From an uncultured archaeon (lineage in GTDB: Archaea > Iainarchaeota > Iainarchaeia > Iainarchaeales > Iainarchaeaceae): a stretch of DNA of 43,360 nt. Below are positions 1,256 through 43,360 of the stretch, piece after piece. The stretch's first letter is position 1. Every line of letters starts with the position of its first letter. The notes beneath the pieces are model-generated. The model was given only the letters and a program-made list of their open reading frames with translations. It was not told the origin of the DNA and did no database searches. The position numbers and the translations under genes were made by a program. The DNA lies in contig CAYJRH010000002.1 of the NCBI GenBank assembly GCA_964372565.1, positions 1-43,360 on the forward strand. Direction: 5' to 3'.

Positions 1256-3544
1256 CTATTTCCTGTATTTGAGGAACTGCGCCAGCAGCGCCTCCAGCTG
1301 CACCCTTTCATTCGCGCCTTCCACCATGCGGAAATTGTATTCGCCGATTTTGTCAATCAGCTCGATTTTGATTTTCCCCGGCACTTCATTCTCGTCCATG
1401 TCAATCATCTCGCGGTGCAGCTGGAGCACGACATCCTCGCCTGACATGCCGTATTCATACATGAGCTTCTCGAGCAGCGCCCGTGCTTCGAGGAATTTCC
1501 CAGAGAGGGCCTCGCGTATCATGAGCTTCACTTCCTCGGGCCTCGCGCGGGCGCTCACTTCGTAAACCGTCTTCTCGGAAACCGCGCCGCCCGAAGAGGA
1601 GGCCGCCTGCAGCACGTTTATCGCCTTCCTCAAATCCCCCTGGCACACGTATACCACGGCCTTTACAGCGCCGTCGTCAACCTGAACGCCCTCCTTTTTT
1701 GCGACATCCTTCACCCTTGCCTCGATGTCCTTCGAGGAAAGCTGCGAGAACCTGAACACGACGCACCTCGACTGTATGGGCTCGATGATTTTGCTGGAAT
1801 AGTTCGCGCTCAGGACGAACCTGCACGTGCGCGAGTACCTCTCCATTGTCCTCCTAAGGGCCTGCTGCGCGTCAAACGTGAGCGCGTCGCTCTCGTCAAG
1901 GAAAATGATTTTGAAGCCCCGGTCGAACGCAAGTGTGCGGGCGAAGTTCTTTATCGTGTCGCGCACGACGTCAATCCCGCGGTCATCGCTGTTGTGCAGG
2001 AGTAGGGGAACCGTTCCTCCGAAAAACATCTGGCTTTCAGGAACGGAAAAGTCATACACCCAATCATCGTATCCTGATATTTGCACATTTTTTACCTTTG
2101 TCCCGAAGAGGCCAGACTGTGCCGCCTGCACAAGTTTTGAAAATTTGGCTCTTTTTGCTATCGGCTGATTTTGGATAAATTCAATTATTTTGCTTTTGAG
2201 GATTCTTTTTGATTTTTTATGGTATAACGAGTGTCTGAACTCATAGTAATAGTTTATTCCTTCCCTTTCAAACGCATTGGTAAATGGTTCGCTTGGCATT
2301 AGATTTGCCTTAATTGCCTTATAGTTCTTCCCTTCCCATACTATGCGCAATTCCCTATTATAGAGCGCGACATTTAGCCCGCATGTCATTGCTAGCCATG
2401 CAATGTCAATGAGGTTTTCCTGTGAAGTTGAGGAGTATCTTACGTATTTTCCCCATTCACCCCACGCGTCTCCCATGTAGCCTTTAAGGAAACTTATCCT
2501 TTTCTCCAGAGGCGCATTAAACATGAATCCAGGCACTCTTTTTGTCGTAGCCCTTCTTTTCACATTCCCCCCATAAAAGTTTTCCTTGAAAAATTTTGCA
2601 AACTGCGTATTGAACGTCGCCACCTGTATTGACGATTCCTTCTTCCTGTCAAACCCGGATTTTCCTAGGCTATATTTGGTTTTGAGCGAAAACTTTCTTG
2701 CCAATATTTCCGAAATTCTTTCCGCCACCGGTTTTTCTTTTGGGTACGCAAGTGTAAAAATAGTTACGCCACTTGAGCCTTTCCTGTTGAATGACGCACA
2801 CCCTTCTGCAAGGTAGAGTCCACAAAGCCACGCAAAATCGTCGTCCATGCTAATTTGCCCAAGTTTAAGCGTTATTTTCGGATTTGGTATCATGCCGCTC
2901 CGCAGTAAATTCGCTTCCTTTAGCGGGTATTCATTGAAGTCTATTACCTGCTCTTTTGCGGTTTCAACTTCCTGATTGAAGGACAAGAGCACATCATCCT
3001 TTTTCACGTCTTTGCATTCTTTTCCCGCCAGATTTCCGTGGGAGTCAAGCACTATAACCGAATGGTTCAGGCTGGTTTTTACTTCCCCGCCCTCAAAAAC
3101 AATCCTTGCTATTTTGCCGACTTTATGTCTGGAGATTAGGCTCACCGGCATAAATTTTATTGCATAATTTTTGTCAATTGAAAGTGTTTCGAGTTTTTCA
3201 GGGAATGAATAGCCTTCACTTCCCTGGAAATATTTTTTGGCTATTTCAGAGAATGTTGTCCGGCTTATTCTCCCGTTCTCACGCACGAGCACTGGCGTAT
3301 CCCCAGTCACGCTCGCGTTAAGCTCAAGGAAATTCTGCTGGAAATTTTCGCCGAACATTTCGCGCGCAAGCGCCACTGCGCTGCTGGTCTTGCCCACCCC
3401 TGCCTGCCCCGCAAAAAGGAGGTTTGGCATTGTCCTGTTCTTGACATAGTTCTCGAGGCGGCCGGTTATTTCCTTCTGGCCGACGACATCGGAGAGCCTC
3501 TCGGGCCTGTATTTTTCTATCCATGGCAGCTCTATCTGGGCCAT
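1256..3544 (-). CDS. rfcS: replication factor C small subunit, interrupted by one intein
   Basis: MAQIELPWIEKYRPERLSDVVGQ, P-loop GQAGVGKTS, ELNA|..|SDDRGI, Walker B IIFLDESDAL, SRC motif (IQSRCVVFRF). The ORF track starts at 3562, but the second ATG at 3544 gives the canonical N-terminus. Exteins total about 321 aa. Confidence 0.93.
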   Translation of the reverse strand: MAQIELPWIEKYRPERLSDVVGQKEITGRLENYVKNRTMPNLLFAGQAGVGKTSSAVALAREMFGENFQQNFLELNASVTGDTPVLVRENGRISRTTFSEIAKKYFQGSEGYSFPEKLETLSIDKNYAIKFMPVSLISRHKVGKIARIVFEGGEVKTSLNHSVIVLDSHGNLAGKECKDVKKDDVLLSFNQEVETAKEQVIDFNEYPLKEANLLRSGMIPNPKITLKLGQISMDDDFAWLCGLYLAEGCASFNRKGSSGVTIFTLAYPKEKPVAERISEILARKFSLKTKYSLGKSGFDRKKESSIQVATFNTQFAKFFKENFYGGNVKRRATTKRVPGFMFNAPLEKRISFLKGYMGDAWGEWGKYVRYSSTSQENLIDIAWLAMTCGLNVALYNRELRIVWEGKNYKAIKANLMPSEPFTNAFEREGINYYYEFRHSLYHKKSKRILKSKIIEFIQNQPIAKRAKFSKLVQAAQSGLFGTKVKNVQISGYDDWVYDFSVPESQMFFGGTVPLLLHNSDDRGIDVVRDTIKNFARTLAFDRGFKIIFLDESDALTFDAQQALRRTMERYSRTCRFVLSANYSSKIIEPIQSRCVVFRFSQLSSKDIEARVKDVAKKEGVQVDDGAVKAVVYVCQGDLRKAINVLQAASSSGGAVSEKTVYEVSARARPEEVKLMIREALSGKFLEARALLEKLMYEYGMSGEDVVLQLHREMIDMDENEVPGKIKIELIDKIGEYNFRMVEGANERVQLEALLAQFLKYRK
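1991..3313 (-). mobile_element. intein (441 aa) with LAGLIDADG homing endonuclease domain in rfcS
   Basis: Begins with Ser (SVTGDTPVLV) right after ELNA. Ends ...VPLLLHN followed by +1 Ser, so removal restores ELNA-SDDRGI. LAGLIDADG-type motifs LCGLYLAEGCASF and FLKGYMGDAWGEWG. The segment looks AT-richer than the flanking extein DNA. Confidence 0.9.
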
Positions 3545-3601
3545 GAAAAAACATCGAATCATAATTGTTATAAACCGATTGCGGCACTTTCAGTAGGTTT
3601 T

Positions 3602-13213: not shown

Positions 13214-16200
13214 ATGGCTGAAGGAAAGCACAGGCAGGTTTCCCTGCGCGTGGAGGAACCCGACCCTTCGCATGTGGGAAGGAACATTATCACGCTTGAC
13301 AGGCGCACAAAGGAGGACCTCGGCGTCACTTCAGGGGACATTGTAGAAATTGCAGGTTCGCAGAAAACCGCCGCAGTGATATGGCCCGCGCGCCAGGAGG
13401 ACGAGGGCAAGGGCATCATAAGGATGGACAACCTCATCCGCAAGAACGCGGGCGTGGGCCTCGGCGAAAAAGTAAATGTGCAGAAAGCCGAGTTCACCGA
13501 GGCGAAGCGCGTTGTGCTCGCCCCGACGCAGGAAGTGCGCATCATTGCCTCGGGGTATGACCGCATCCTCAAGAAGAATTTCATCGGCAGGCCGCTGAAC
13601 AAGGGCGACCGCGTACTGATAAGCGTGTTCGGCTCGGGCTTCATTTACCAGGTCATCGACACAAACCCGCGTGGCATAGTAAAAGTCACCGATTTCACGC
13701 AATTCGTGCTGAAGGAGGAGCCTGTCAAGGACGGAATAGCAGGGATACCTAAGGTTGCTTACGAGGACATCGGCGGAATGGAGGACCAGGTGCAAAGGGT
13801 GAGGGAGATGATTGAACTGCCCATGAAGCACCCCGAGATTTTCAGGCGCCTCGGCATCAATCCGCCGAAAGGCGTGCTGCTTTACGGGCCCCCTGGAACC
13901 GGGAAAACGCTGCTCGCAAAGGCGGTTGCGAACGAAACGCAGGCGCATTTCATTTCGATATCAAGCCCGAGCATAATGTGTGTTGAAGGAAATACTCCAA
14001 TCCTGACCAACCCCAGGGGTTTTGAGAGCGCGGAAGGGATGTTCTCGGCTGCTTTGAAAAGCGGGACTTTGATAAATGACGGGAAGCTGAAGATTGTGGA
14101 ACTTAAAGAGCCGTTATCCGTATACTCGCTAAACAATGAGCTCAAAATCGAGAAAGGGAAAGTGACCCACCTCACAAAGCTGCGCGCAAAAACTTACAGG
14201 GTCAAAACAAGCTTCGGGGACGAGGTGGTAGTTTCCTCCAACCAGCCATTTGCGATGCTGGATTCTTTTGGTGGCATCGTGTGGAAAATCGCCTCGGAAC
14301 TGAGGGCCGGAGAAAAGATTGCAGTTGCGTCCGCATTGCCCGAAGGCAAGAGCCATGACTTCGGCGATTACCTGCGCGGGTTTCCGGATGCCACCATGGT
14401 AAAAACTTCAGGCGGCGTAAAAAAACTCTCAGCCCTGCGCAAAAATGAAAAAGTCCTGGGAGTGAAAATTGGCCATATGGAGAGGAGCACGGACGGAAAC
14501 TTCATTTCTCTCCCAAAAAAAACCTCGCCGGAACTCATGAGAATACTAGGTTTCATGTATTCCGAAGGGAACATAGATGAGGACGGCCTGCATTTTTCCA
14601 ACAATGACCCTGTTCTGCTTAATGAATTTGCGCAGCTGTGCAAATCAGTTTTCGGCATGAACCCAAAGATAAAGAGTAATCGCGTACATTGCTATTCCAG
14701 AACACTCAGGCATTTCTTTTCAGAAGTGCTTGGCAGCCCCATTGGGAGAAAAGGCAATTACTCCCTTCCAAAATGGTTTTTTTCACTTTCGAAAGAAGAA
14801 ATCGCCTCTTTTATAAGGGGATTTTGGGAAGGTGACGGCACCACAAGTAAGGGAGTCGGCGGCTATCCTACAATAAGGATTTATTCTATCACGAGGGCCG
14901 TGCTTGAACAGTTGTCGGTTTTGGGCAAAAAGCTGGGGCTGATAGCAGAAATCAAGCCATGGAAAACAAAGCTTTCTGACATGTGGGCGCTGACATACGT
15001 TGGGAACAGGTCAAGGGAAATATTCGCTGAACTGATAGAATCCAAAACGAAAAAGTATTCCATTATCAGGAAATGGTACGCCGGGAGAAAGAAGAAAGGC
15101 GATGATTTGAGCATTCCTGACATAAGCCCGCTGCTCAAAAAAATAAAGCCGGAAAAGAATCTCATTTACGGCAAAAACCTCCCGGAAGGGCCGACTGAAC
15201 GGTACATTTCCGGAAGGGACCCGCTGACAGTAAGGAAGCTTGAGGAGATTTGCTCGCTTTTCGGGAATAATGGCAAGCCCTTGGAGAATTTAGCGAATGC
15301 GCAACTTCGGTGGGCGAAGGTCACCAATGTCATTGCAGAAGGCGAAAAGGAATTATTTGACCTCACTGTTGAGCCGTTCAATAATTTCCTTGCTGGCCAT
15401 TCCCTCATGGTGCTGCACAACTCAAAATTCGTCGGCGAGGCCGAGGAGCGCATCCGCGAGGTTTTCAAGGAAGCGGAGAAGAACGCGCCTTCAATAATTT
15501 TTTTCGATGAAATAGACGCGATTGCCCCGAAGCGCGACGAGGTTGTCGGCGAGGTCGAGCGCCGCGTTGTCGCGCAGATACTCTCCGCAATGGACGGGAT
15601 GGAGTCGCGCGGGCAGGTCATTGTCATCGGCGCAACCAACCGCGTCAACAGCATCGACGAGGCGCTGCGCAGGCCCGGCCGTTTCGACCGCGAGATTGAA
15701 ATCGGCGTTCCCTCGAAGAAAGGCAGGCTTGACATACTGCGGATTCACACTCGCGGGATGCCGCTCGCGAAGAACGTTGACCTTGATTATTTCGGCGGAA
15801 TCACGCACGGGTTTGTGGGCGCGGATTTGGAATCGCTGGCAAAGGAATCCGCGATGAAGGCGCTGCGCCGCTACCTGCCGAAAATAAATCTCGAGGAGGA
15901 AACAATTCCGTCAGAGGTCCTCGAATCAATGGAAGTCAAGCGCGAGGACTTCCTCGAGGCATTGAAAGATGTCCAGCCCTCTGCTTTGAGGGAAGTCGCC
16001 ATTGAGGTTCCCAATGTCAAGTGGTCCGACATCGGCGGCCTTCTGGATGTGAAGAACGAGCTGAAGCAGGCCGTTGAATGGCCGCTGAAGAATCCGGAGT
16101 CTTTCCAGAAGATGGGTATCCGGCCGCCGCGTGGCATTTTGCTTTACGGCCCCCCGGGTTGCGGAAAGACCGCCATCGCAAAGGCAATCGCAACAGAGAG

Positions 16201-16843
16201 CGAGGCGAATTTCATCAGCATCAAGGGGCCGCAGCTTTTGAGTCTCTGGGTGGGCGAGAGCGAGAAGGGGATTCGCAAGGTTTTCCAGCGTGCCCGCCAG
16301 GTTTCGCCGGTTGTCATTTTCTTTGACGAGATTGACAGCATAGCCATGAGGCGCGGGATGTCCGCCGATTCGGGCGTAACCGAGAGGATGGTCAACCAGC
16401 TGCTGACAGAGCTCGACGGCGTCGAGGAGCTGAAAGGAGTTGTTTTCATTGCGGCAACAAACAGGCCCGACCTTATCGACCCCGCTCTTTTGAGGCCTGG
16501 AAGGATTGACAAGATTGTGAGGGTGGCTGCCCCGGATTTGGAGTCAAGGAAGGCGATTTTCTCGATACACGCGAAGAACGTGCCGCTTGCTCGCAACGTT
16601 TCGATTGACGACCTCGCTTCGAAGACCGAGGGCTACAGCGGCGCGGACATCGAAGGCCTGATAAGGGAGGCTGCGCTGATTTCCCTTGAAGAGTCGCACT
16701 TCAAGCCCTCCGAAGTCAAGCTTTTGCATTTCGAGGCCGCCATGAAAAAGGTCACGCCCTCGATCTCAAAGGAGACGAGCGACGCCTACGAGGCTTTCAA
16801 GTCAACTGTCGCGCAGGCGTTCAGGCCTTCATATGTGAGATGA
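13214..16843 (+). CDS. cdc48: Cdc48/VCP-like AAA+ ATPase, interrupted by one intein
   Basis: CDC48 N-domain. D1 Walker [17 protein letters not shown]2 Walker [16 protein letters not shown]. Walker [10 protein letters not shown] and VIFFDEIDS. Exteins total 728 aa. Confidence 0.95.
13979..15421 (+). mobile_element. intein (481 aa) with LAGLIDADG homing endonuclease domain in cdc48 D1
   Basis: Starts at Cys256 ([10 protein letters not shown]) after ..ISISSPSIM. Ends ..HSLMVLHN followed by +1 Ser (SKFVGEAEE). Block B-like region. LAGLIDADG motifs [14 protein letters not shown] and [14 protein letters not shown]-richer than the exteins. Confidence 0.9.
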
Positions 16844-35771: not shown

Positions 35772-35783
35772 AACCTATTTAAT
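35772..35783 (+). promoter_or_regulatory. BRE/TATA-like box aacctatttaat upstream of Lon fragment 1
   Basis: Ends 27 nt upstream of the ATG at 35811. An identical 12-mer lies upstream of Lon fragment 2. Confidence 0.45.
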
Positions 35784-35810: not shown

Positions 35811-36830
35811 ATGCCAGACCTGCTCAAGCTCGGTTCCACAAAGGAAGTGCCCGTCCCAAAACTGTTGTTGGACCAGATTGTGGGCCAGGACAAGAGCGTC
35901 GAGCTCATAAGGAAGGCGGCTGTTCAGCGCAGGAACGTGCTCCTTGTCGGCCTTCCGGGAACCGGCAAGTCGATGCTGGCAAAGGCAATGTCCGAAATAA
36001 TGCCGATACAGAAATTGCAGGACGTGATGATTTACCCGAATGAGGAAGACGCCAACAACCCGTTCGTCAAAACAGTGAAGGCGGGCGACGGGCAAAAAAT
36101 CCTGGAGCAGGCGCGTGTCGAGGTCAGGGCGCAGGACGACAACATGCGCCTCATAGGGTTCATACTCCCGATGGGCTGGTTCCTGCTCACTTATGTCCTG
36201 TGGACGCTCAAGCTCATGCCCGATGTTGTTTATGCCGCCACGCTGATACTCGGCGGGTTCCTCATGGTAGGGTTTGTCCTCGGCTCGCAGATGCGCGTGC
36301 GCACGGTGCTCGTTCCGCCCAAGCTCCTCATCAACAACGCGGGAAAGAAGATTGCCCCGTTCTTCGAGGCAACCGGCGCGCGCGCTGGGGCGCTGCTCGG
36401 GGACGTTCGTCACGACCCCTTGCAGTGCAATTACGGTTTTAACGAGCTTTTAGTCCAAAAGAAGGGTGAAAAAGACTTGGAATTTGAAAAAAAACCTTTT
36501 AACAAACTTTGGGATGAGATGAGACAGAAGCATCCTAAAGAAATAATCAAAACCGAGAAAGGATATGAGGCAATAATGCTCCCTGCCGAAGAGAAAGTTT
36601 ACACTTTAGGTTACAAAGACGGAAAGCCGGTTCTTTCAAAGATTTTATCTTTGAATAGGCGGCCGTTTGAAGGTGAGCTTGTGGACATACAATCAGGCGA
36701 TGCGAGAATTTCCGTCACACCAGAGCACAAGGTTGATGTGCCGGGCAACTATAAGCTGGCGTCAAATATTTCCACGGCAGATAACCTCATAAAACTCTTA
36801 ACGGAAAAAATCCAGGCAATAAACAGGTAA
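35811..36830 (+). CDS. lon: LonB protease fragment 1: N-terminal AAA+ part with two TM helices (205 aa) fused to intein-1 N-half
   Basis: LLLDQIVGQDKSVELIRKAA, Walker A GLPGTGKSMLAKAM, TM helices LIGFILPMGWFLLTYVLW and VVYAATLILGGFLMVGFVLG, ..GALLGDVRHDPLQ, then CNYGFNELLV.., and a stop at 36828. Confidence 0.9.
   Translation: MPDLLKLGSTKEVPVPKLLLDQIVGQDKSVELIRKAAVQRRNVLLVGLPGTGKSMLAKAMSEIMPIQKLQDVMIYPNEEDANNPFVKTVKAGDGQKILEQARVEVRAQDDNMRLIGFILPMGWFLLTYVLWTLKLMPDVVYAATLILGGFLMVGFVLGSQMRVRTVLVPPKLLINNAGKKIAPFFEATGARAGALLGDVRHDPLQCNYGFNELLVQKKGEKDLEFEKKPFNKLWDEMRQKHPKEIIKTEKGYEAIMLPAEEKVYTLGYKDGKPVLSKILSLNRRPFEGELVDIQSGDARISVTPEHKVDVPGNYKLASNISTADNLIKLLTEKIQAINR
36426..36827 (+). mobile_element. 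split intein 1, N-half (IntN1, 134 aa)
   Basis: Cys1 sits at the extein junction (DPLQ|C). Block B ISVTPEH. Colinear with the IntN of intein 2 (..TPEH..GN[YF]..). Composition turns abruptly AT-rich at 36426. Confidence 0.85.
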
Positions 36831-37042
36831 TCCGTTAGGTCAAATTCTTCTGTTGCCGCCTTCTGCTTTTCGTAAGAATTCTTTCATGTCAATCCCTCGC
36901 CACCTCCGCGGAATTTTTTCATTCCGACTCTGGGCTTTGCCTGCTTAAACCTTCTGCCCTCTTGGGAGGCCAAAGGATTTAATGCAGTCAAAGCCCTCCA
37001 AAGAGTCTCCATGAAAAAATTCCTTTCACGGAGGTGGCTCGA

Positions 37043-37183
37043 ATGGAGTTTTTGAAAGAATTTCAGATTCTTCCTCCAACAGCAGAGGAAATAGCCGCAG
37101 TTATCAAACTGCAGGAAATGGATTCGGAGTTTCTCACAGACAGGGAACTCTGGATTCTGCAAGAGTTCGGAGGTGATTGCTGA
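37043..37183 (+). CDS. 46-aa acidic ORF translationally coupled to the endonuclease gene (speculative)
   Basis: MEFLKEFQILPPTAEEIAAVIKLQEMDSEFLTDRELWILQEFGGDC. Its TGA overlaps the ATG at 37183 (tgATG). Not in the ORF track (<60 aa). Confidence 0.25.
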   Translation: MEFLKEFQILPPTAEEIAAVIKLQEMDSEFLTDRELWILQEFGGDC

Positions 37184-38292
37184 TGAGCGCACCGGCACCG
37201 AACTCCCTGAATAACAATATAAATGCCGCGAAGGCAGATTCGTCTGCGAGCAAGGGAAACAATCAATCTGCTTCTGAAACGGAAGCGTCTGTAATGCAGT
37301 CAATTATCACTGAACAGGACATAATCAATACTTATTCTAAGGAAGAGCAATTTTCCTGCAAGAAATATTTCGAGTATCAGAAACTCATTGTGGAGAATCC
37401 ATTGCTTGGTTACAAGAAAGCCGCAAAGCTTCTCGGAATAAAGCAGGGGTCGACAAGGTGGTGGCATACAAAAGGTGCAAAGCGTGCTATTCCTTTGCCT
37501 CTTAAAGTTATTGAGAAATTGAAGGGCGCAGGGTTGCTTCCGTTTTATGAAAACCATAAATCGTCTGAAACAATTTTCAACATGCTAGGCGTCTTGTTTG
37601 GAGATGGTGGCATTGATATACGTTACAACACGGTTGCATTCATTTCTTCTGACAGGAATGATATTGATTTGTGGCAGGCGGATTTGCTGAGGGTTTTTCC
37701 ATTTGCCCAAGGAAAAACACAAATTGTTGAAAGGGGTGAATATGGGCACTCCTACAATCTTCGCTCCTATGACCGCGCGGTAGTCAGGTTTTTTGCTGCT
37801 TTAGGTGTTCCTGTGGGAGACAAAGTAACCATACCCTACTCATTGCCAACACGGATTTTCAACTCTTCAGAAAAATCAAGAATTGCGTTTCTCGATGGTT
37901 ATCTTGCCGCTGAAGTTTCCGTTCCTTCATGGAGGTCGGACCCTCACGGAATAAATCGTTTCCAAAATTTTGCGATTGGCATTTCAAAAATTGAGTTCCT
38001 TGAGAAAGAGCACAGGGAATTTTTGAAAAGCGTTGAAGAACTCCTTGAATCTGTAGGAATTCAAACAACAGGAAACATCAACAAAAACTATTCTGCAGGT
38101 CATCACCGGAAGGATGGCGCATTCACCGCAAACTACCGCATATTTATCCGAACGCCTTTCCAAAGGGTTCTTTTCTTCAACGATAAATTCCAATTGCGCT
38201 ACGCGAGAGGCAAGAAAGAGAGATTCGGCAAAGTGATAGCCGAAGCGCTCGAAGAGAGGGCGGGGTGCGGAAGGCTTGGTCGGATAAAATAA
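37183..38292 (+). CDS. free-standing LAGLIDADG homing endonuclease with N-terminal HTH-like region
   Basis: LAGLIDADG motifs MLGVLFGDGGID and IAFLDGYLAAEVS. Colinear similarity to the endonuclease part of Lon intein 2 (IINTYS/IIQTYS; [28 protein letters not shown]; [19 protein letters not shown]). The conserved part may start at the ATG at 37294. Confidence 0.8.
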   Translation: MSAPAPNSLNNNINAAKADSSASKGNNQSASETEASVMQSIITEQDIINTYSKEEQFSCKKYFEYQKLIVENPLLGYKKAAKLLGIKQGSTRWWHTKGAKRAIPLPLKVIEKLKGAGLLPFYENHKSSETIFNMLGVLFGDGGIDIRYNTVAFISSDRNDIDLWQADLLRVFPFAQGKTQIVERGEYGHSYNLRSYDRAVVRFFAALGVPVGDKVTIPYSLPTRIFNSSEKSRIAFLDGYLAAEVSVPSWRSDPHGINRFQNFAIGISKIEFLEKEHREFLKSVEELLESVGIQTTGNINKNYSAGHHRKDGAFTANYRIFIRTPFQRVLFFNDKFQLRYARGKKERFGKVIAEALEERAGCGRLGRIK

Positions 38293-38339
38293 CCATTCGT
38301 ACCAGAAATGATTATAATCGCTTCAAGGAGAACACCTTT

Positions 38340-39023
38340 ATGGCGGGCTTGTTCACGCACGAGTGGATTGCCAAACTGGCCTTGGAGAAGCTTTCCAGAA
38401 GGGGCTTCATTTCGAGTTATGAGAACATTGACGATTATTTCTTCGGCGCAATCGCGCCGGACATAAGGTACATCGCCAATTCACAAAGGGATGTAACGCA
38501 CCGCCCGCTAGGCAAACATTCGATTTTTCAGGCTTTTCCTGTCAGCAGCACCTCAATTCCTTTCATGGCAGGCTATGAAACACATTTGATTGTTGACAGC
38601 ACCTGGGCGAACGACAACGGCGAGCTTGGCAGGAGCATTTATGCAAATTATGGCATTAACCAGAACGAACCAATCCAAAAATTCGGCCTTTACTTGGCTG
38701 TGGATGATTATTTTCAGGGCGAAGCGGATTGGCTTTTCCAATTTGAATGCGCAGGCAACATACTCAGGGCCAACGACACATCACTTTTGCTCAAACTTGG
38801 GTTCAGCCAAAATGATGCCCTAAAATTCAAGAGGCTTGCTGCACTCTATTTAAGGGAGCCTGGCTTAGACACCTTCAACGCATTCAATCTTTTCCCAAAC
38901 AATTTTGATGAGGCATTGCTTGGAAAAGTCGCCGACCAGATGCAGGCTTTGGCTTCCTTTTTGAAGGAATTCAAAAATGTCTCAGTAGAAAAGTGCCTTG
39001 AATCTTTGGAGAGATTACTATGA
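38340..39023 (+). CDS. zinc-dependent phospholipase C-like family protein (tentative)
   Basis: MAGLFTHEWIAKLA, FFGAIAPDIRY, THRP, GYETHLIVDSTW resemble the H/D metal-ligand spacing of PLC/P1-nuclease-like hypothetical proteins. ATG at 38340 preferred over 38265. Confidence 0.45.
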   Translation: MAGLFTHEWIAKLALEKLSRRGFISSYENIDDYFFGAIAPDIRYIANSQRDVTHRPLGKHSIFQAFPVSSTSIPFMAGYETHLIVDSTWANDNGELGRSIYANYGINQNEPIQKFGLYLAVDDYFQGEADWLFQFECAGNILRANDTSLLLKLGFSQNDALKFKRLAALYLREPGLDTFNAFNLFPNNFDEALLGKVADQMQALASFLKEFKNVSVEKCLESLERLL

Positions 39024-39148
39024 GGCCTGTTTTCAAAATAATTTTGGGGTTTGCCTCTGCAGTATTCATCGTTTTTATGATTTTTTATTTTCTTGTCTAT
39101 GTGGATATGCTGGCGTATTTCTATAATTTTGCGACAGCCATTGACTGA
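39020..39148 (+). CDS. 42-aa hydrophobic peptide, copy 1 (speculative small membrane protein)
   Basis: MRPVFKIILGFASAVFIVFMIFYFLVYVDMLAYFYNFATAID. ATGA overlap with the stop of the upstream gene. Not in the ORF track. Confidence 0.35.
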   Translation: MRPVFKIILGFASAVFIVFMIFYFLVYVDMLAYFYNFATAID

Positions 39149-39262
39149 CGGGGCAATTTTCATGCCTTGGCAGGGGGAGGCCATAAGTTGCGGCGGCCTG
39201 CGCCCAAGAAATTTTAAAAGAATTTCATTGGAAAAATGCGCCGAATCCCTGGAGTTGTATCT

Positions 39263-39391
39263 GTGAGGCTTATTTTCAAAATAATTTCGGGGGCAGTTAT
39301 CGCACTGTTTGCCTTATATCTGGCATTTCACATTGTGGGCTTTGCACTTTGGCTCGTGTATACCTATAACTTTTTGACGGCAGTTGATTGA
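39263..39391 (+). CDS. 42-aa hydrophobic peptide, copy 2 (GTG start; speculative)
   Basis: (M)RLIFKIISGAVIALFALYLAFHIVGFALWLVYTYNFLTAVD. Same length and shared MR..FKII.G / Y.YNF.TA.D ends as copy 1. Preceded by a degenerate copy of the 3' end of the PLC-like gene. Confidence 0.3.
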   Translation: MRLIFKIISGAVIALFALYLAFHIVGFALWLVYTYNFLTAVD

Positions 39392-39421
39392 ATCCAAGAC
39401 GCAAATTCCATTAACCAATGC

Positions 39422-39433
39422 AACCTATTTAAT
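39422..39433 (+). promoter_or_regulatory. BRE/TATA-like box aacctatttaat upstream of Lon fragment 2
   Basis: Ends 23 nt upstream of the ATG at 39457. Identical to 35772-35783. Confidence 0.45.
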
Positions 39434-39456
39434 AATTTTCCAACCATACGTCTAAC

Positions 39457-39579
39457 ATGGATTTCAGGGCAAAAGAGGAAAATGTAACCTCTGTCCAGAA
39501 GCGCCCTTTCAAGGGCCACGTTTACAACGTTACTACTGAAACTGGCAATCTCTTTGTAGAAAATATTTTGGTGCATAAT
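39457..39579 (+). mobile_element. split intein 1, C-half (IntC1, 41 aa)
   Basis: Blocks F/G: [23 protein letters not shown], then +1 Ser (tca at 39580). Begins at its own ATG. Confidence 0.85.
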
Positions 39580-41340
39580 TCAGGCGGCCTCGGGACCCCC
39601 CCGCATCTGCGTGTCGAGCCCGGCATGATTCACAAGGCCTCCGGCGGCGTGCTTTTCGTTGACGAGATTGCCACGCTTTCGCAGAAGAGCCAGCAGGAGC
39701 TCCTGACCGCGATGCAGGAGAAAAAGTACCCCATCACCGGCCAGAGCGAGATGAGCTCGGGGGCCATGACCCGAACCGAACCGATTCCGTGTTTTCCCGC
39801 GGAAGCAGTTTTGTCCGCCATGAACGGCAAAACCCCCATAGGGTCGCTTGTTGATTCAATTTTGTCGGAGAACCAAGGCAAAGTTAAGGTAATCGATGGC
39901 GTTGAAACTTTTGATTTGGAAAAAGAGCATCAAATTTTGGCATATTCCGAAGGGAAAATAGTCCCTTCAAAACTTCAAAGGGTTTACAGGAGAAAATATT
40001 CAGGGAAAGTCCTGAAAATAAAATTTGATGATGGAACCGAGCTGATAGCCACGCCGGAACATCCGATAAAGACATTAGGCAATTTTATCAAGGCGGATGA
40101 TTTAAGGGTTGGGGCCGTTGTGGAAGCTGAAGAAAAATCAGCAATATCGGAGGGCAAAAATATTATTCAAACCTACAGTAATGCCAATCAACTTATCGCC
40201 AAAAAGTTTGCTGCTTGGCTTTCATCAGAAAAAAGCCTTTCCCATAAAGAATTGGGGGTAGATAGCAAAACCGTATATTTATGGAAAAGGGGCGCAATGC
40301 CGCGACCATTAAAAGCAGCTCGATTTCTTAATAGTAAAAATCTGTTGCCATTGGCCGCTGACGATGCAAGGCTGCCGATAATAGCAAGAGTGGCCGGCGC
40401 ACTATTCGGGGACGGAGGTCTAGACGGGCGAAGATTTGCGAGAATCTATTTTGTTGCAGGTTCGGACGAACTTGCGGATATAAACGAATTCAAGGAAGAC
40501 CTATTGGCTATATTCGGGCGCGATATAGAGCCTGAAATTACTATTAGAAAAAGCGTATCCAAAACGGGTTCCGGTTTGGAATTATCCGTCAATAATTCAT
40601 TTATTGCAAGGTTTTTTTACGCGCTGGGCGTTCCAAAAGGCGATAAAGTTTCCCAACCGCTTAAAGTGCCTTCCTGGATAAATGGCTCAGACATATTGGG
40701 GCGCGAATTTTTCTCATCTCTTCTAACATGCGAGTTATATGGGGGCATCAGGAGCAGCCAGGACACCCCCAAATTTGTGATGGCTAAAATAAAAGACTTT
40801 GAAAAAGAGCACTTTGAATTTCTCAATTGTATAAGGGGCTTTTTATCAAAAAATGGCGTCGAAGTTGGGGAAGCAAGGGCGGTCAGGGAGTACACTAAAA
40901 ACAAGAATCTCGTGAAACCAAAACTAGCCGCCACTTATTCATTTAGCATAAAGCCCTCTTACAAAAACATAATCCGCCTGTCTAAAACTGTAAATTTTTA
41001 CTATGCGTATGGCAAGCGGACTGCAATGCTTGAAGCTGTGGGGCGCGGCGAAGCGTTTGTGGCGTATCAGGGCAATTTGAGAAATAAAAAGCAGCAAGCG
41101 GTTCTTTTAAGGCAAGATGGAAAAACTATTAGGCAAATAGCGGCTGAAACGCGGCTGCAAAAAAACACCGTTCTAAAGCTCGTGGCCCCTACTTATAAAA
41201 AATATTCAGAGGACGACAAAAGCAGAGTTTTTGAATTATTCAAACAGCAAATTTCGCCAAAGGCTGCAGCCAAAACGCTTCAAATCCCATATACAACCGT
41301 GCTTTACTGGAAAAATAATTATTATGGTGGCGGGCAATGA
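39457..41340 (+). CDS. lon: LonB fragment 2: intein-1 C-half (41 aa) + 70-aa Lon middle extein (Walker B) + intein-2 N-half with LAGLIDADG endonuclease and HTH regions
   Basis: ..[22 protein letters not shown]|[33 protein letters not shown]...[10 protein letters not shown]|[10 protein letters not shown]...ATPEH...[11 protein letters not shown]...LLTCELYGG...[16 protein letters not shown]...[12 protein letters not shown]. Stop at 41338. Confidence 0.9.
39790..41337 (+). mobile_element. split intein 2, N-half with fused LAGLIDADG endonuclease/HTH domains (IntN2, 516 aa)
   Basis: Cys1 (tgt at 39790) directly after TEPIP. Block B IATPEH. Two LAGLIDADG motifs. Terminated by the TGA at 41338-40. 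Confidence 0.85.
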
Positions 41341-41459
41341 TGTATCCGAAAACAACCAAAAAAATTATTGGAATAGAAGAAGAAAATTTTGGCGGCTACG
41401 TATATAACGTTAAAACGGAAGCCGGAACTTATCTAGCCAACTCCATAGTTGTCCATAAT
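41337..41459 (+). mobile_element. split intein 2, C-half (IntC2, 41 aa)
   Basis: Blocks F/G: [23 protein letters not shown], then +1 Cys (tgc at 41460). The ATG overlaps the IntN2 stop (caATGAtg). Confidence 0.85.
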
Positions 41460-42557
41460 TGCGATTTCGTCCTTGCCGCCGCGGGGAATTACGAGGACCT
41501 TGAGAAGGTCCACCCCGCGCTTCGTTCGAGGATAAGGGGTTACGGCTACGAGATTTACATGAATGTCGACATGGATGACACCGAGGAGAACCGCAACAAG
41601 ATAGTGCAGTTCGTCGCGCAGGAAGTCACGAACGACGGCAAAATCCCGCACTTCTCGATGGACGCGATACAGGAGATTATTTTCGAGGCGCGGAGGCGCG
41701 CGGGAAGGAAAAACAAGCTGACGCTGAAGCTCCGCGATTTGGGCGGGCTTGTCCGCGCCGCCGGCGACCTGTCAAAGGAAAAGAACCACCGGCTTGTTTC
41801 GAGGCAGGATGTGCTCGAGGCAAAGATGACCGCGCGCACGCTCGAGCAGCAGATGGTCGGGAAAATCATCGAGGAGAAGAAGGATTACGAGGTTTACCGC
41901 TTCGAGGGCTCGGCAATCGGCCGCGTGAACGGCCTTGCTGTTATGGCCGACGGCGACGCGGGCCTGATAATGCCCATTGAGGCCGAGATTGCGCCTGCGC
42001 AGTCCGCGAGCGAGGGGAAAGTCATTGCGACAGGCAAGCTCGGGGAGATTGCGAAGGAAGCCGTGCAGAATGTTTCCGCAATAATAAAGCGCCTTTCGGG
42101 AAAAGACCTCACAAAGCAGGATTTGCACATCCAGTTCCTGCAGTCCTACAGCGGTGTCGAGGGAGATTCCGCTTCGGTGAGCGTTGCGACAGCGGTCGTT
42201 TCTGCGCTTGAGGGTATTCCGGTGAAGCAGAACCTCGCAATGACCGGCTCGCTGAGCGTGCGCGGCGAGGTGCTCCCTGTCGGAGGGGTTACCGCAAAGG
42301 TTTCCGCCGCGATAAACGCGGGCTTCACGGAAGTGATAATCCCGAGGGCGAACTCCGAGGATGTGGTGATTTCGGCAGGCCAGCTCAACAAAATCAGGCT
42401 CATCCCTGTTTCAAACCTTTCGGACGTCCTTGAAAACGCGTTTGTGAAGGGCGAGAAGACCGACAAGCTCCTCACAAGCCTGAGGAAGCTCATCAAGGGC
42501 ACGCTGCTGAAGGAATCCGCCAAGCCCAAGGGCGGCGCGGCGGTCAACATTCTGTGA
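41337..42557 (+). CDS. lon: LonB fragment 3: intein-2 C-half (41 aa) + C-terminal AAA+ remainder and Lon protease domain (365 aa)
   Basis: [41 protein letters not shown]|[23 protein letters not shown]... Protease Ser in [19 protein letters not shown] and Lys in [13 protein letters not shown]. Confidence 0.9.
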
Positions 42558-42572
42558 AACCCGCTATTGCAT

Positions 42573-42935
42573 TTATTTCACGAACACGGCATTTTCCATG
42601 CGCTCGAATTCCTTATCCCCGGTAAGGAATTTGATGCCAAGCCTTTTTGCGATAGTGTAGCCGATTGCATCAGGCATTGATAGCGCTTTTTTTTCAAGCC
42701 TTAAATTAGAGGCATTTGAAATATCCTCGGTTGTCACTTCTGTGAGGAATCTCCAGTATTTTTTTGTGTATTCATCAGCCTGTTTTTTGCCCTCGCGCTT
42801 CATCGCATAGCTCAGTTCAGCTAGGTTAAATATGGTTGTGACTGCACTTGCTTCCTGAAAACCCGCATAGCTTACCGTGCCGTTAATGATTCCGAAAAAA
42901 GCGTAGGTGTCAAAGAAAATTTTCCCGTTAGTCAT
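42573..42935 (-). CDS. vapC: PIN-domain toxin (VapC-like)
   Basis: KIFFDTYAFFGII (first acidic residue), MPDAIGYTIAKRLGIKFLTGDKEF (C-terminal PIN motif). 8-nt overlap with the upstream antitoxin gene. Confidence 0.85.
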   Translation of the reverse strand: MTNGKIFFDTYAFFGIINGTVSYAGFQEASAVTTIFNLAELSYAMKREGKKQADEYTKKYWRFLTEVTTEDISNASNLRLEKKALSMPDAIGYTIAKRLGIKFLTGDKEFERMENAVFVK

Positions 42936-43155
42936 TCCAAAGTTCCTTGTCGACTTCCTTCAATATGGCCTCAATCGGCCTCGAGAATTTTATGGTGCCC
43001 CACGTTTCCTTCAGCGGGTTTTTCCCGGATTTTTTCCTTATGAGAAGCTCCACTTCCTCGCCAGTCTTCAGTTTTTCCTTCAGTACGGCGTCCCGCGGAA
43101 TCACAACACCTTTCGACTTCCCCCACTTCCTTATTGTTGCCGTGACTTCTATCAT
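42928..43155 (-). CDS. vapB: AbrB/SpoVT-type antitoxin (VapB-like)
   Basis: MIEVTATIRKWGKSKGVVIPRDAVLKEKLKTGEEVELLI. The internal ATG at 43155 is preferred over 43209. Confidence 0.8.
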   Translation of the reverse strand: MIEVTATIRKWGKSKGVVIPRDAVLKEKLKTGEEVELLIRKKSGKNPLKETWGTIKFSRPIEAILKEVDKELWND

Positions 43156-43293
43156 AAAACCGCAATAATTATATCGATATAACTGGTTAAAAGGCTTCCG
43201 CCTTTCCAAGCCCGCTCACCAGTCGCTTGGAATCTTCCGCCGGTCCGTCATCCTTGGTTTTGCCGGCAGGCCTGCAAGTATGCGGGTATCGGC

Positions 43294-43360
43294 TTCACTC
43301 CATCGTTATCCTGCCTTCGCTGAATATGAACTCGCCGGCCTTGAGCTTGTGCTGCCTTTT
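43294..43360 (-). CDS. 3' end of an unidentified CDS running off the window
   Basis: The open frame ..KRQHKLKAGEFIFSEGRITME ends at a TGA (43294-96). Too short to assign. Confidence 0.3.

Follow-up and report, generated by a model that had tools for sequence, protein, structure and literature searches.

We analysed a 43,360-nucleotide (nt) stretch of the forward strand of contig CAYJRH010000002.1 (assembly GCA_964372565.1, an uncultured archaeon of the Iainarchaeaceae), hereafter the window, in which the gene of the LonB protease, lonB, is found in pieces. The LonB coding sequence is distributed among three open reading frames (ORFs), whose LonB segments, or exteins (E1, E2 and E3), are joined to the N- and C-terminal halves (IntN and IntC) of two inteins in the order E1-IntN1 / IntC1-E2-IntN2 / IntC2-E3, with a predicted homing endonuclease (HEN) and helix-turn-helix (HTH) motifs included in IntN2 (Table 1). 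ORF1 and ORF2 are 2.6 kb apart, and this gap contains a LAGLIDADG endonuclease ORF, a 227-amino acid (aa) ORF similar to zinc-dependent phospholipase C (PLC/PLPC-like) and two small ORFs; the ORF2 stop and the ORF3 start codon overlap as ATGA (41337-41340). We consider it probable that two paralogous, naturally split inteins have broken lonB for good at two sites and that its product is rejoined by two protein trans-splicing events.

Table 1. Features of the split lonB locus and of its surroundings in the window
Feature	Position	Strand	Description
B recognition element (BRE)/TATA-like 12-mer AACCTATTTAAT	35772..35783	+	28-39 nt upstream of ORF1 ATG; putative promoter
ORF1	35811-36830	+	339 aa: LonB extein 1 + IntN1
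Extein 1	35811..36425	+	LonB residues 1-205; Walker A GLPGTGKS; two hydrophobic transmembrane (TM) segments; ends GDVRHDPLQ
IntN1	36426..36830	+	134 aa; Cys1 at nt 36426; block B VTPEH; stop 36828-30
Free-standing LAGLIDADG homing-endonuclease gene	37177..38292	+	Start TTG 37177 or ATG 37183, after GGAGGTGA
Zn-dependent-PLC-like ORF	38340..39023	+	227 aa; Pfam PF00882, 27.4 bits (just above cut-off); longest ORF from GTG 38265
Two paralogous 42-aa hydrophobic ORFs	39020-39148, 39263-39391	+	Called as genes in L090/L091
Second AACCTATTTAAT copy	39422..39433	+	24-35 nt upstream of ORF2 ATG; putative ORF2-ORF3 promoter
ORF2	39457-41340	+	627 aa: IntC1 + extein 2 + IntN2
IntC1	39457..39579	+	41 aa; ends VHN
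Extein 2	39580..39789	+	LonB residues 206-275 (70 aa); Ser+1 at nt 39580; SGGLGTP...Walker B VLFVDE...TEPIP
IntN2	39790..41340	+	516 aa; Cys1 at nt 39790; stop 41338-40
IntN2 splicing domain	~39790-40120	+	Cys1, TPEH (full block B: ATPEH)
IntN2 LAGLIDADG endonuclease (predicted)	~40120-41020	+	LFGDGG, CELYG
IntN2 two HTH motifs	~41085-41325	+	Followed by the stop codon
ORF3	41337-42557	+	406 aa: IntC2 + extein 3
IntC2	41337..41459	+	41 aa; ends VHN
Extein 3	41460..42557	+	LonB residues 276-640 (365 aa); Cys+1 at nt 41460; AAA+ remainder, LID, Ser-Lys protease domain
Replication factor C small subunit	1256-3562	-	768 aa; contiguous intein
Cdc48	13214-16843	+	1209 aa; contiguous intein, LAGLIDADG_3 domain
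PIN-domain toxin + MazE-like antitoxin pair	42573-43209	-	Directly downstream of lonB

The restored LonB chain and the four intein halves

When the three exteins are joined in silico and the intein parts are left out, a LonB chain of 640 aa is obtained, which aligns with Thermococcus onnurineus LonB (3k1j, E 2.6e-224; 4zpx) without gaps at both junctions. The first junction, HDPLQ/SGGLGTP, lines up with HDPFQSGGLGTP and the second, TEPIP/CDFVL, with TEPVPCDFVL of the T. onnurineus protein, and the alignment takes in the LonB TM region. In the spliced product, Walker A is located at residue 47, Walker B at residue 229, and the catalytic serine and lysine contexts, GDSAS and GGVTAK, at residues 510 and 550, respectively. 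Pfam searches matched AAA-type P-loop families in ORF1 and Lon_C (E 3.3e-33) together with LonB_AAA-LID in ORF3; AAA_32 was also among the LonB matches. The restored chain possesses all of the features by which an archaeal LonB is recognized, i.e., an AAA+ module containing both Walker motifs, a membrane anchor within the ATPase domain, the LonB LID and a Ser-Lys protease domain.

Both interruptions are recognizable as inteins. In ORF2, Pfam Intein_splicing (E 9.4e-10) and HTH_23 were matched, and IntN2 matches the solved inteins 2jmz, NrdJ-1 and PI-PkoII. IntN1 alone is too diverged for a Pfam match and has no match among PDB sequences; a profile of 21 IntN1 homologues (A2), in turn, matches the Mja KlbA intein (2jmz, E 4e-15) as well as the Pho RadA, NrdJ-1, PI-PkoII and PolB16 inteins, with the Neq068 N-half as a marginal match, and Intein_splicing was found individually in 18 of these 21 homologues. 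In the A2 alignment H101 is invariant and T98 nearly so, while the first residue of the IntN1 homologues is S, C or T. Among 17 ORF2 homologues, down to 37% identity, the residues N41, S42, C112, T199, H202, G314-G320 and E426 are invariant; they include the two acidic residues of the IntN2 endonuclease, D319 of LFGDGG and E426, the second LAGLIDADG glutamate. Both IntC halves retain the F and G blocks and the terminal Asn, followed by Ser+1 in intein 1 and Cys+1 in intein 2, and the set of canonical splicing residues is complete in both inteins.

The AlphaFold model of ORF2 (AF2, 17 homologues) has a mean predicted local distance difference test score (pLDDT) of 81, with values of 80-95 in the IntN2 region; confidence is high in IntC1 and throughout IntN2 with its endonuclease and HTH parts, and the isolated 70-aa Lon fragment is disordered. 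Foldseek matched the model with the TliVMA (E 5e-9), PhoVMA and PI-PkoII inteins and, among LAGLIDADG enzymes, with I-DmoI, I-Tsp061I and E-DreI (TM-score, TMt, of 0.46-0.66). Judging from the two motifs, the conserved acidic residues and this fold match, IntN2 carries a predicted LAGLIDADG homing endonuclease.

The two inteins resemble each other in both of their halves: IntC1 and IntC2 are 34% identical over 41 aa (tblastn E ~1e-6) and 37% identical over the last 35 aa, and IntN1 and IntN2 share 29% identity over 95 aa (E 1e-8). They appear to be paralogous and each other's closest relatives. When intein 2 was searched against 1.84 billion representative proteins, its best matches after the orthologues were the LonB site-1 inteins and their free-standing endonucleases, which suggests that intein 2 may have been derived from intein 1.

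The first-pass annotation of this DNA, made from the letters without database searches, had placed the three ORFs where we find them exactly, as the dissected translations show. It had also read both junctions as uninterrupted LonB of about 640 aa with the catalytic Ser and Lys contexts present, both interruptions as inteins, and the two inteins as paralogues. All of this agrees with the alignments, Pfam and profile matches, invariant residues and match ranking given above, and the identities that it named in the gapless IntC1/IntC2 alignment are correct. The profile searches and the alignment to characterized LonB proteins that it proposed have confirmed both the domains and the junctions.

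Reality, conservation and distribution of the breaks

The position of the intein halves on separate ORFs is upheld both by other assemblies and by diverged relatives. Four further contigs, each from another run or assembly (GCA_947085725.1, ERR4904390, ERR3478686 and ERR4904391), encode an identical ORF2 protein. These four independent assemblies jointly cover positions 36457-43360 of the window, three of them extending to the ORF1 stop, and are 99.8-100% identical to it, with the junction DNA unchanged near 36.8, 39.4 and 41.3 kb. The differences sit at 36478, 36970/1, 38603, 38609, 40692, 41581/2 and beyond 42146, and the sole indel (36970/1) is intergenic. Misassembly is ruled out by the identity of the junction DNA in the four assemblies. 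A continuous frame, which the first-pass annotation had named as the counter-case, was looked for in all four and none has it; nor do relatives accumulate further stops, since the ORFs are retained in those at 42-63% identity.

Upstream of ORF3, the first stop in its frame is at 41316-18 and leaves 18 nt for any frameshift, and no slippery heptamer is present in the 18-nt stretch between this stop and the ORF2/ORF3 overlap. The frame offset from ORF2 to ORF3 is +2 in the window and in L001 and +1 in L002, L005, L007 and L009, and therefore there is no conserved recoding signal. Programmed frameshifting or readthrough at 41316-41340 is ruled out by the 18-nt stretch without a slippery site together with the lineage-variable offset. 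The ORF2 orthologues all stop within a few codons of the same point past the HTH domain, and the downstream ORF restarts with Met.

The search for ORF2 homologues returned around 22 full-length clusters (584-640 aa, 38-65% identity, 92-100% coverage), which come from Micrarchaeota and Diapherotrites/Iainarchaeia. The three-ORF layout, sought in related genomes as the first-pass annotation had advised, is found in the same order at L001 (GCA_040755695.1), L002-4 (Hainich groundwater), L005/6 and L009 (GCA_043809245.1), as well as at the loci L010-L016 of the distribution scan described below. The three-piece relatives encode E1-IntN1, then a gap, then IntC1-E2-IntN2-HEN-HTH, and finally an overlapping or abutting IntC2-E3. 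Among lineages that have diverged to 42-63% identity, at least five retain the three ORFs, and the splicing residues are invariant in them. The exteins are 58-87% identical across lineages, with intact catalytic motifs (extein 2 is 76-87% identical among the three-piece relatives), and no stops or frameshifts were found within extein or intein segments in more than 10 diverged loci. The ratio of nonsynonymous to synonymous substitutions (dN/dS), computed against closer relatives and with saturated dS, amounts to 0.10-0.12 for IntN1, 0.01-0.06 for IntC1 and 0.02-0.10 for the exteins; for intein 2 the nearest relatives at the DNA level are ~60% identical. This purifying selection and the invariant catalytic residues lend indirect support to the proposed ligation of the exteins in trans.

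To describe the distribution, one genome per GTDB species was scanned; the counts given here come from 80 of 251 confirmed loci, essentially all from DPANN archaea, which were sorted by a simple classifier, and the search pattern required the intein-derived Asn before SGGLGTP and was thus blind to intein-free lon. Site 1 is split at ~65 loci and occupied by a contiguous intein at 7, including the complete AR10 genome; both sites are split in 7 species representatives (L010-L016), and a contiguous intein at site 2 was found at none. Likewise, an exhaustive phmmer search of the 1.84 billion representative proteins recovered no contiguous form of intein 2. At the loci split at site 1 only, the IntC1-E2-E3 proteins are ~475 aa long, and site 2 alone is split in L007/L008, P0017 and P0021. 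Intein 1 is no isolated case but a member of a family of split LonB inteins that is very widespread in DPANN archaea. We also noticed that the middle ORFs P0002, P0005, P0013 and P0017 are labelled "sigma 54-interacting transcriptional regulator" by NCBI, a systematic misannotation that arises because the 70-aa Lon fragment matches PF00158. Genome surveys may accordingly score DPANN LonB as partial or absent.

Site 1 (HDP[LF]Q/S) is the classical LonB intein site. Contiguous inteins occupy it in Pyrococcus (P0074), Thermococcus zilligii (P0118), Archaeoglobus profundus (P0040) and archaeon AR10 (P0099), and we take the Pab and Pho Lon inteins of InBase to belong here as well. Ten LonB inteins were catalogued in Euryarchaeota by Novikova et al. 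(PMC4760082). The free-standing endonuclease of the gap shares 35% identity (E 3e-37) with the corresponding domain of the LonB intein of A. profundus, which is contiguous, and 28% identity (E 1e-25) with the intein 2 endonuclease, with a weak Pfam LAGLIDADG_3 match, and its homologues occupy the same gap in around 30 other species. We take it to be the detached endonuclease of intein 1. Because this endonuclease ORF sits free-standing between the intein halves on the same strand, intein 1 agrees with what Dassa et al. (PMC2677866) called a "fractured gene", although the host gene is here a cellular one of an archaeon and the enzyme is of the LAGLIDADG type. The first-pass annotation, which was right in recognizing the split inteins, had overlooked the classical nature of site 1, the gap endonuclease and the missing contiguous form of intein 2. 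Other loci show further arrangements at this site: the endonuclease is fused to IntN1 with IntC separate in L063, P0127, P0128 and P0135, and IntN and IntC lie just 77 nt apart with no endonuclease in L064. The site-1 family may be read as displaying stages of intein splitting, from contiguous inteins through IntN-HEN/IntC and IntN/HEN/IntC to adjacent IntN/IntC.

In many relatives (L001, L002, L011, L019-L021, L024-L028 and many others) IntN1 starts with Ser, in some with Thr, and the +1 residue is Ser; in L002 IntC1 ends with VCN and not VHN. Judged by these residues, site-1 split inteins with Ser1 and Ser+1 would be natural split inteins without a cysteine nucleophile. As to pairing within intein 1, L019 and L021 have an IntC1 ~90% identical to that of the window and an IntN1 just 33-40% identical. 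Near-identical C-halves combined with such diverged N-halves may point to recombination within intein 1, or to a relaxed choice of partner there. Further inteins occur in other positions of the gene. In L001 (4669-7077), ORF1 bears a third, contiguous LAGLIDADG-type intein in the Walker A loop (GTGK/C...HN/S) besides the split IntN1, and P0100 has a further contiguous intein at RVE/C within extein 2, which brings the insertion sites for inteins in DPANN lonB to at least four.

The remaining ORFs of the gap are of less certain relevance. The PLC-like family is restricted to DPANN and comprises 81 homologue clusters, almost all of exactly 227 aa. Many of its members share a contig with split lonB, and the ORF is also present in the site-1 gap of L001 (7130-7831), L020, L021, L028, L031 and L040. 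It may represent mobile-element cargo or a nuclease of the PLC/P1 superfamily. The first of the two 42-aa ORFs overlaps the PLC-like stop by ATGA. A 243-nt tandem partial duplication (38970-39391, with 38970-39049 and 39213-39292 being 73% identical) copied the 3' end of the PLC-like gene and the 42-aa ORF, and so gave two small membrane-peptide ORFs, whose membership in the split-lonB system is uncertain. Elsewhere in the window, two other AAA+ genes, those of replication factor C and Cdc48, carry contiguous inteins, and the source genome is intein-rich in P-loop ATPases. In relatives, the immediate neighbour of lonB is a DUF373 membrane-protein gene, and for that reason the PIN/MazE-like pair found here at this place looks like a local insertion.

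Expression, assembly and alternative explanations

The 12-mer AACCTATTTAAT occurs exactly twice in the window (chance expectation 0.08), once before ORF1 and once before ORF2, and its position would fit an archaeal BRE/TATA element on a near-leaderless mRNA. A CCTATTTAA-type element is found at the matching place before ORF2 in L009 and L002. No AACCTATTTAAT-like element precedes ORF3, whose start in all lineages follows a GGTGG, GAGGAG or AGGTGA motif located in the last part of ORF2 (GGTGG in the window). Because ORF3 has no promoter-like element and such a Shine-Dalgarno-like motif lies within the ORF2 end, a bicistronic ORF2-ORF3 message with translational coupling is suggested.

We propose that a separate TATA-type promoter would drive ORF1, whose product would be inserted in the membrane via the two TM helices, and that ORF2 and ORF3 would be co-transcribed from the second promoter with the same 12-mer, with ORF3 translated by coupling through the ATGA overlap and the Shine-Dalgarno-like GGTGG. 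IntN2 of the ORF2 product would then capture IntC2 of the ORF3 product and ligate E2 to E3, and IntC1 of the ORF2 product would pair with IntN1 of the ORF1 product and ligate E1 to E2. The outcome would be a scarless 640-aa LonB in the usual hexamer, and the excised IntN2-HEN-HTH/IntC2 complex and the free intein 1 endonuclease may still be capable of homing.

The IntC-X-IntN topology of ORF2 is that of split-intein circular ligation of peptides and proteins (SICLOPPS), and the two intein pairs must therefore be orthogonal: pairing of IntC1 with IntN2 would cyclise E2, and pairing of IntN1 with IntC2 would skip it. We found that IntC1 and IntC2 constitute two orthologous groups, with 58-60% identity within and 33% between them. 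In five of six lineages, a segment in an IntN strand and a segment of IntC bear complementary charges in each pair, and the signs are reversed from one intein to the other (IntN/IntC charges: intein 1, -1/+3 to +5; intein 2, +4 to +6/-2 to -3), while the net charge of the whole intein halves shows no clear pattern of complementarity. Pairing of split inteins through charge has been described (PMC2677866), and we hypothesize that it could discriminate between the two LonB intein pairs.

Several observations weigh against the assembly of LonB by two trans-splicing events. In IntC1, the residue before the terminal Asn is variable (H/S/C/R/K among homologues), although a penultimate His is also missing in many active inteins. 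In the AlphaFold model of ORF2, IntC1 is docked onto IntN2, and the SICLOPPS structures 5ol6 and 5ol5 (TMt ~0.7) are among the Foldseek matches of this model, so that fold compatibility alone does not prevent wrong pairing. The L005 lineage breaks the charge rule. The promoters are assigned from motif and position. No second lon is present in the 43-kb window, an absence that covers the window only. Moreover, the metagenome-assembled genome (MAG) JBDRLP01 holds a split site-1 lonB in addition to a lonB with a contiguous 429-aa site-1 intein (L037/L051, contigs 43 and 44), and these represent either two lonB paralogues or a mixed bin.

The three polypeptides might instead form an active Lon non-covalently, with the intein halves acting as high-affinity docking domains. 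Assembly of fragments via domains derived from mobile elements has a reported precedent in the fragmented NrdA of phage Aeh1 (PMC3045599), and the lack of a conserved penultimate His in IntC1 would be in keeping with such a role. However, residues that serve chemistry only (Cys/Ser/Thr1, block B Thr and His, the terminal Asn, and Ser+1 or Cys+1) are invariant at 37-63% identity, and the breaks lie inside the AAA+ module by Walker B, where ~175-560 aa of unexcised intein would have to be accommodated within the hexameric ring. We regard non-covalent assembly as unlikely.

It is also conceivable that splicing occurs and that the fragmentation has been co-opted for regulation or alternative products, such as control of Lon dosage, E1-E3 skipping or cyclisation of E2 by IntC1/IntN2. 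The SICLOPPS topology of ORF2, the IntC1-IntN2 pairing in the AlphaFold model and the separate promoter-like elements of ORF1 and ORF2-ORF3 would all suit such a role. Yet, both intein families have group-specific sequences, as expected if cross-reaction is selected against, and the use of the same promoter 12-mer suggests co-regulation over differential control. Co-option of this kind seems to us rather improbable.

There is little probability, in turn, that lonB is a decaying gene whose inteins have broken up and whose pieces are unused, another protease or a second lon working instead. A second lon could lie outside the window, and one MAG does hold two lonB loci (L037, L051). Nevertheless, the segments are free of stops and frameshifts in the diverged loci, dN/dS stays at or below ~0.1 with catalytic motifs intact, the start codons, Shine-Dalgarno-like motifs and promoter-like elements of the downstream ORFs are conserved, and site-1 splits occur in ~65 species representatives. 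Finally, it is hardly credible that the breaks arose from faulty sequencing or assembly, or that programmed frameshifting or readthrough overcomes them and leaves at least intein 2 contiguous: a single indel in the 4-nt ORF2/ORF3 overlap would indeed mimic a split, but four assemblies agree, orthologues stop at the same point and restart with Met, the frame offset varies between lineages, the 18 nt open to a shift hold no slippery site, intein 2 is never contiguous in 1.84 billion representatives, and the site-1 halves lie 2.6 kb apart with other genes between them.

Comparison with known split-intein systems

Taking these alternatives into account, we find it likely that DPANN archaea of several classes build LonB from three polypeptides by two trans-splicing events mediated by mutually orthogonal paralogous inteins, which would be the first natural tandem case. 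Split inteins, fractured genes, LonB inteins and engineered tandem trans-splicing are already known; natural double trans-splicing within one protein is apparently new, in so far as no split-intein LonB, DPANN split intein or natural double trans-splicing was found in full texts, with most subscription journals outside.

Natural split inteins are known from cyanobacterial DnaE and Nanoarchaeum equitans PolB, where they reunite an essential protein that is made in pieces; these inteins are divided where an endonuclease would be inserted, with an IntN of ~100-135 aa and an IntC of ~36-41 aa. The LonB system resembles them in that an essential protein is encoded in pieces. It differs in that DnaE and PolB each have one split and two pieces encoded at distant loci, with no endonuclease left. 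In turn, the contiguous LonB inteins of Thermococcales and Archaeoglobus share with the inteins described here the site HDP[FL]Q/SGGLGTP, the blocks TPEHKV and YN[VI]TTETGNL...N and a LAGLIDADG endonuclease. Yet they are part of one polypeptide and splice in cis, whereas here IntN, the endonuclease gene and IntC are apart, with genes between them.

In the fractured genes described by Dassa et al. (2009), split intein halves flank a free-standing homing-endonuclease gene on the same strand (PMC2677866). Intein 1 shares this order, i.e., the N-part of the host gene with IntN, a non-coding spacer, the endonuclease ORF, and IntC with the C-part of the host gene. The Dassa loci (gp41, NrdA/J, IMPDH and DnaE) are phage-like loci of marine metagenomes and have GIY-YIG or Vsr-like endonucleases (PMC2677866), and the word "LAGLIDADG" is absent from the text of that paper. 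In contrast, the host gene here is that of a cellular archaeal housekeeping protease, the enzyme is of the LAGLIDADG type with the motifs LFGDGG and AAEV/CELYG, and cargo genes and a second split intein are present. Intein 2 falls outside the definition of Dassa et al., as its endonuclease is fused to IntN2. The LonB site-1 arrangements, if read as stages of splitting, extend the gene-breaking model of these authors to LAGLIDADG enzymes and cellular genomes and, if the assembly proposed here is true, a central quality-control protease of DPANN archaea depends on post-translational ligation.

Engineered tandem trans-splicing follows the same logic, as it joins three fragments of which the middle one carries an N-terminal IntC and a C-terminal IntN (PMC7210297, PMC12707363 and PMC7090010). 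Those systems use unrelated intein pairs that were chosen for orthogonality, while the pairs found here are natural and paralogous, and their orthogonality is deduced. Were this correct, the LonB loci would offer ready-made candidate orthogonal split-intein pairs. The relatives with Ser1 and Ser+1 would, in addition, be useful for cysteine-less split-intein chemistry, as highly efficient cysteine-less split inteins are scarce, only one having been reported according to PMC12707363. Ligation of three fragments has hitherto been treated as an engineering feat; if the trans-splicing proposed for DPANN LonB holds true, evolution has solved it with two paralogous pairs.

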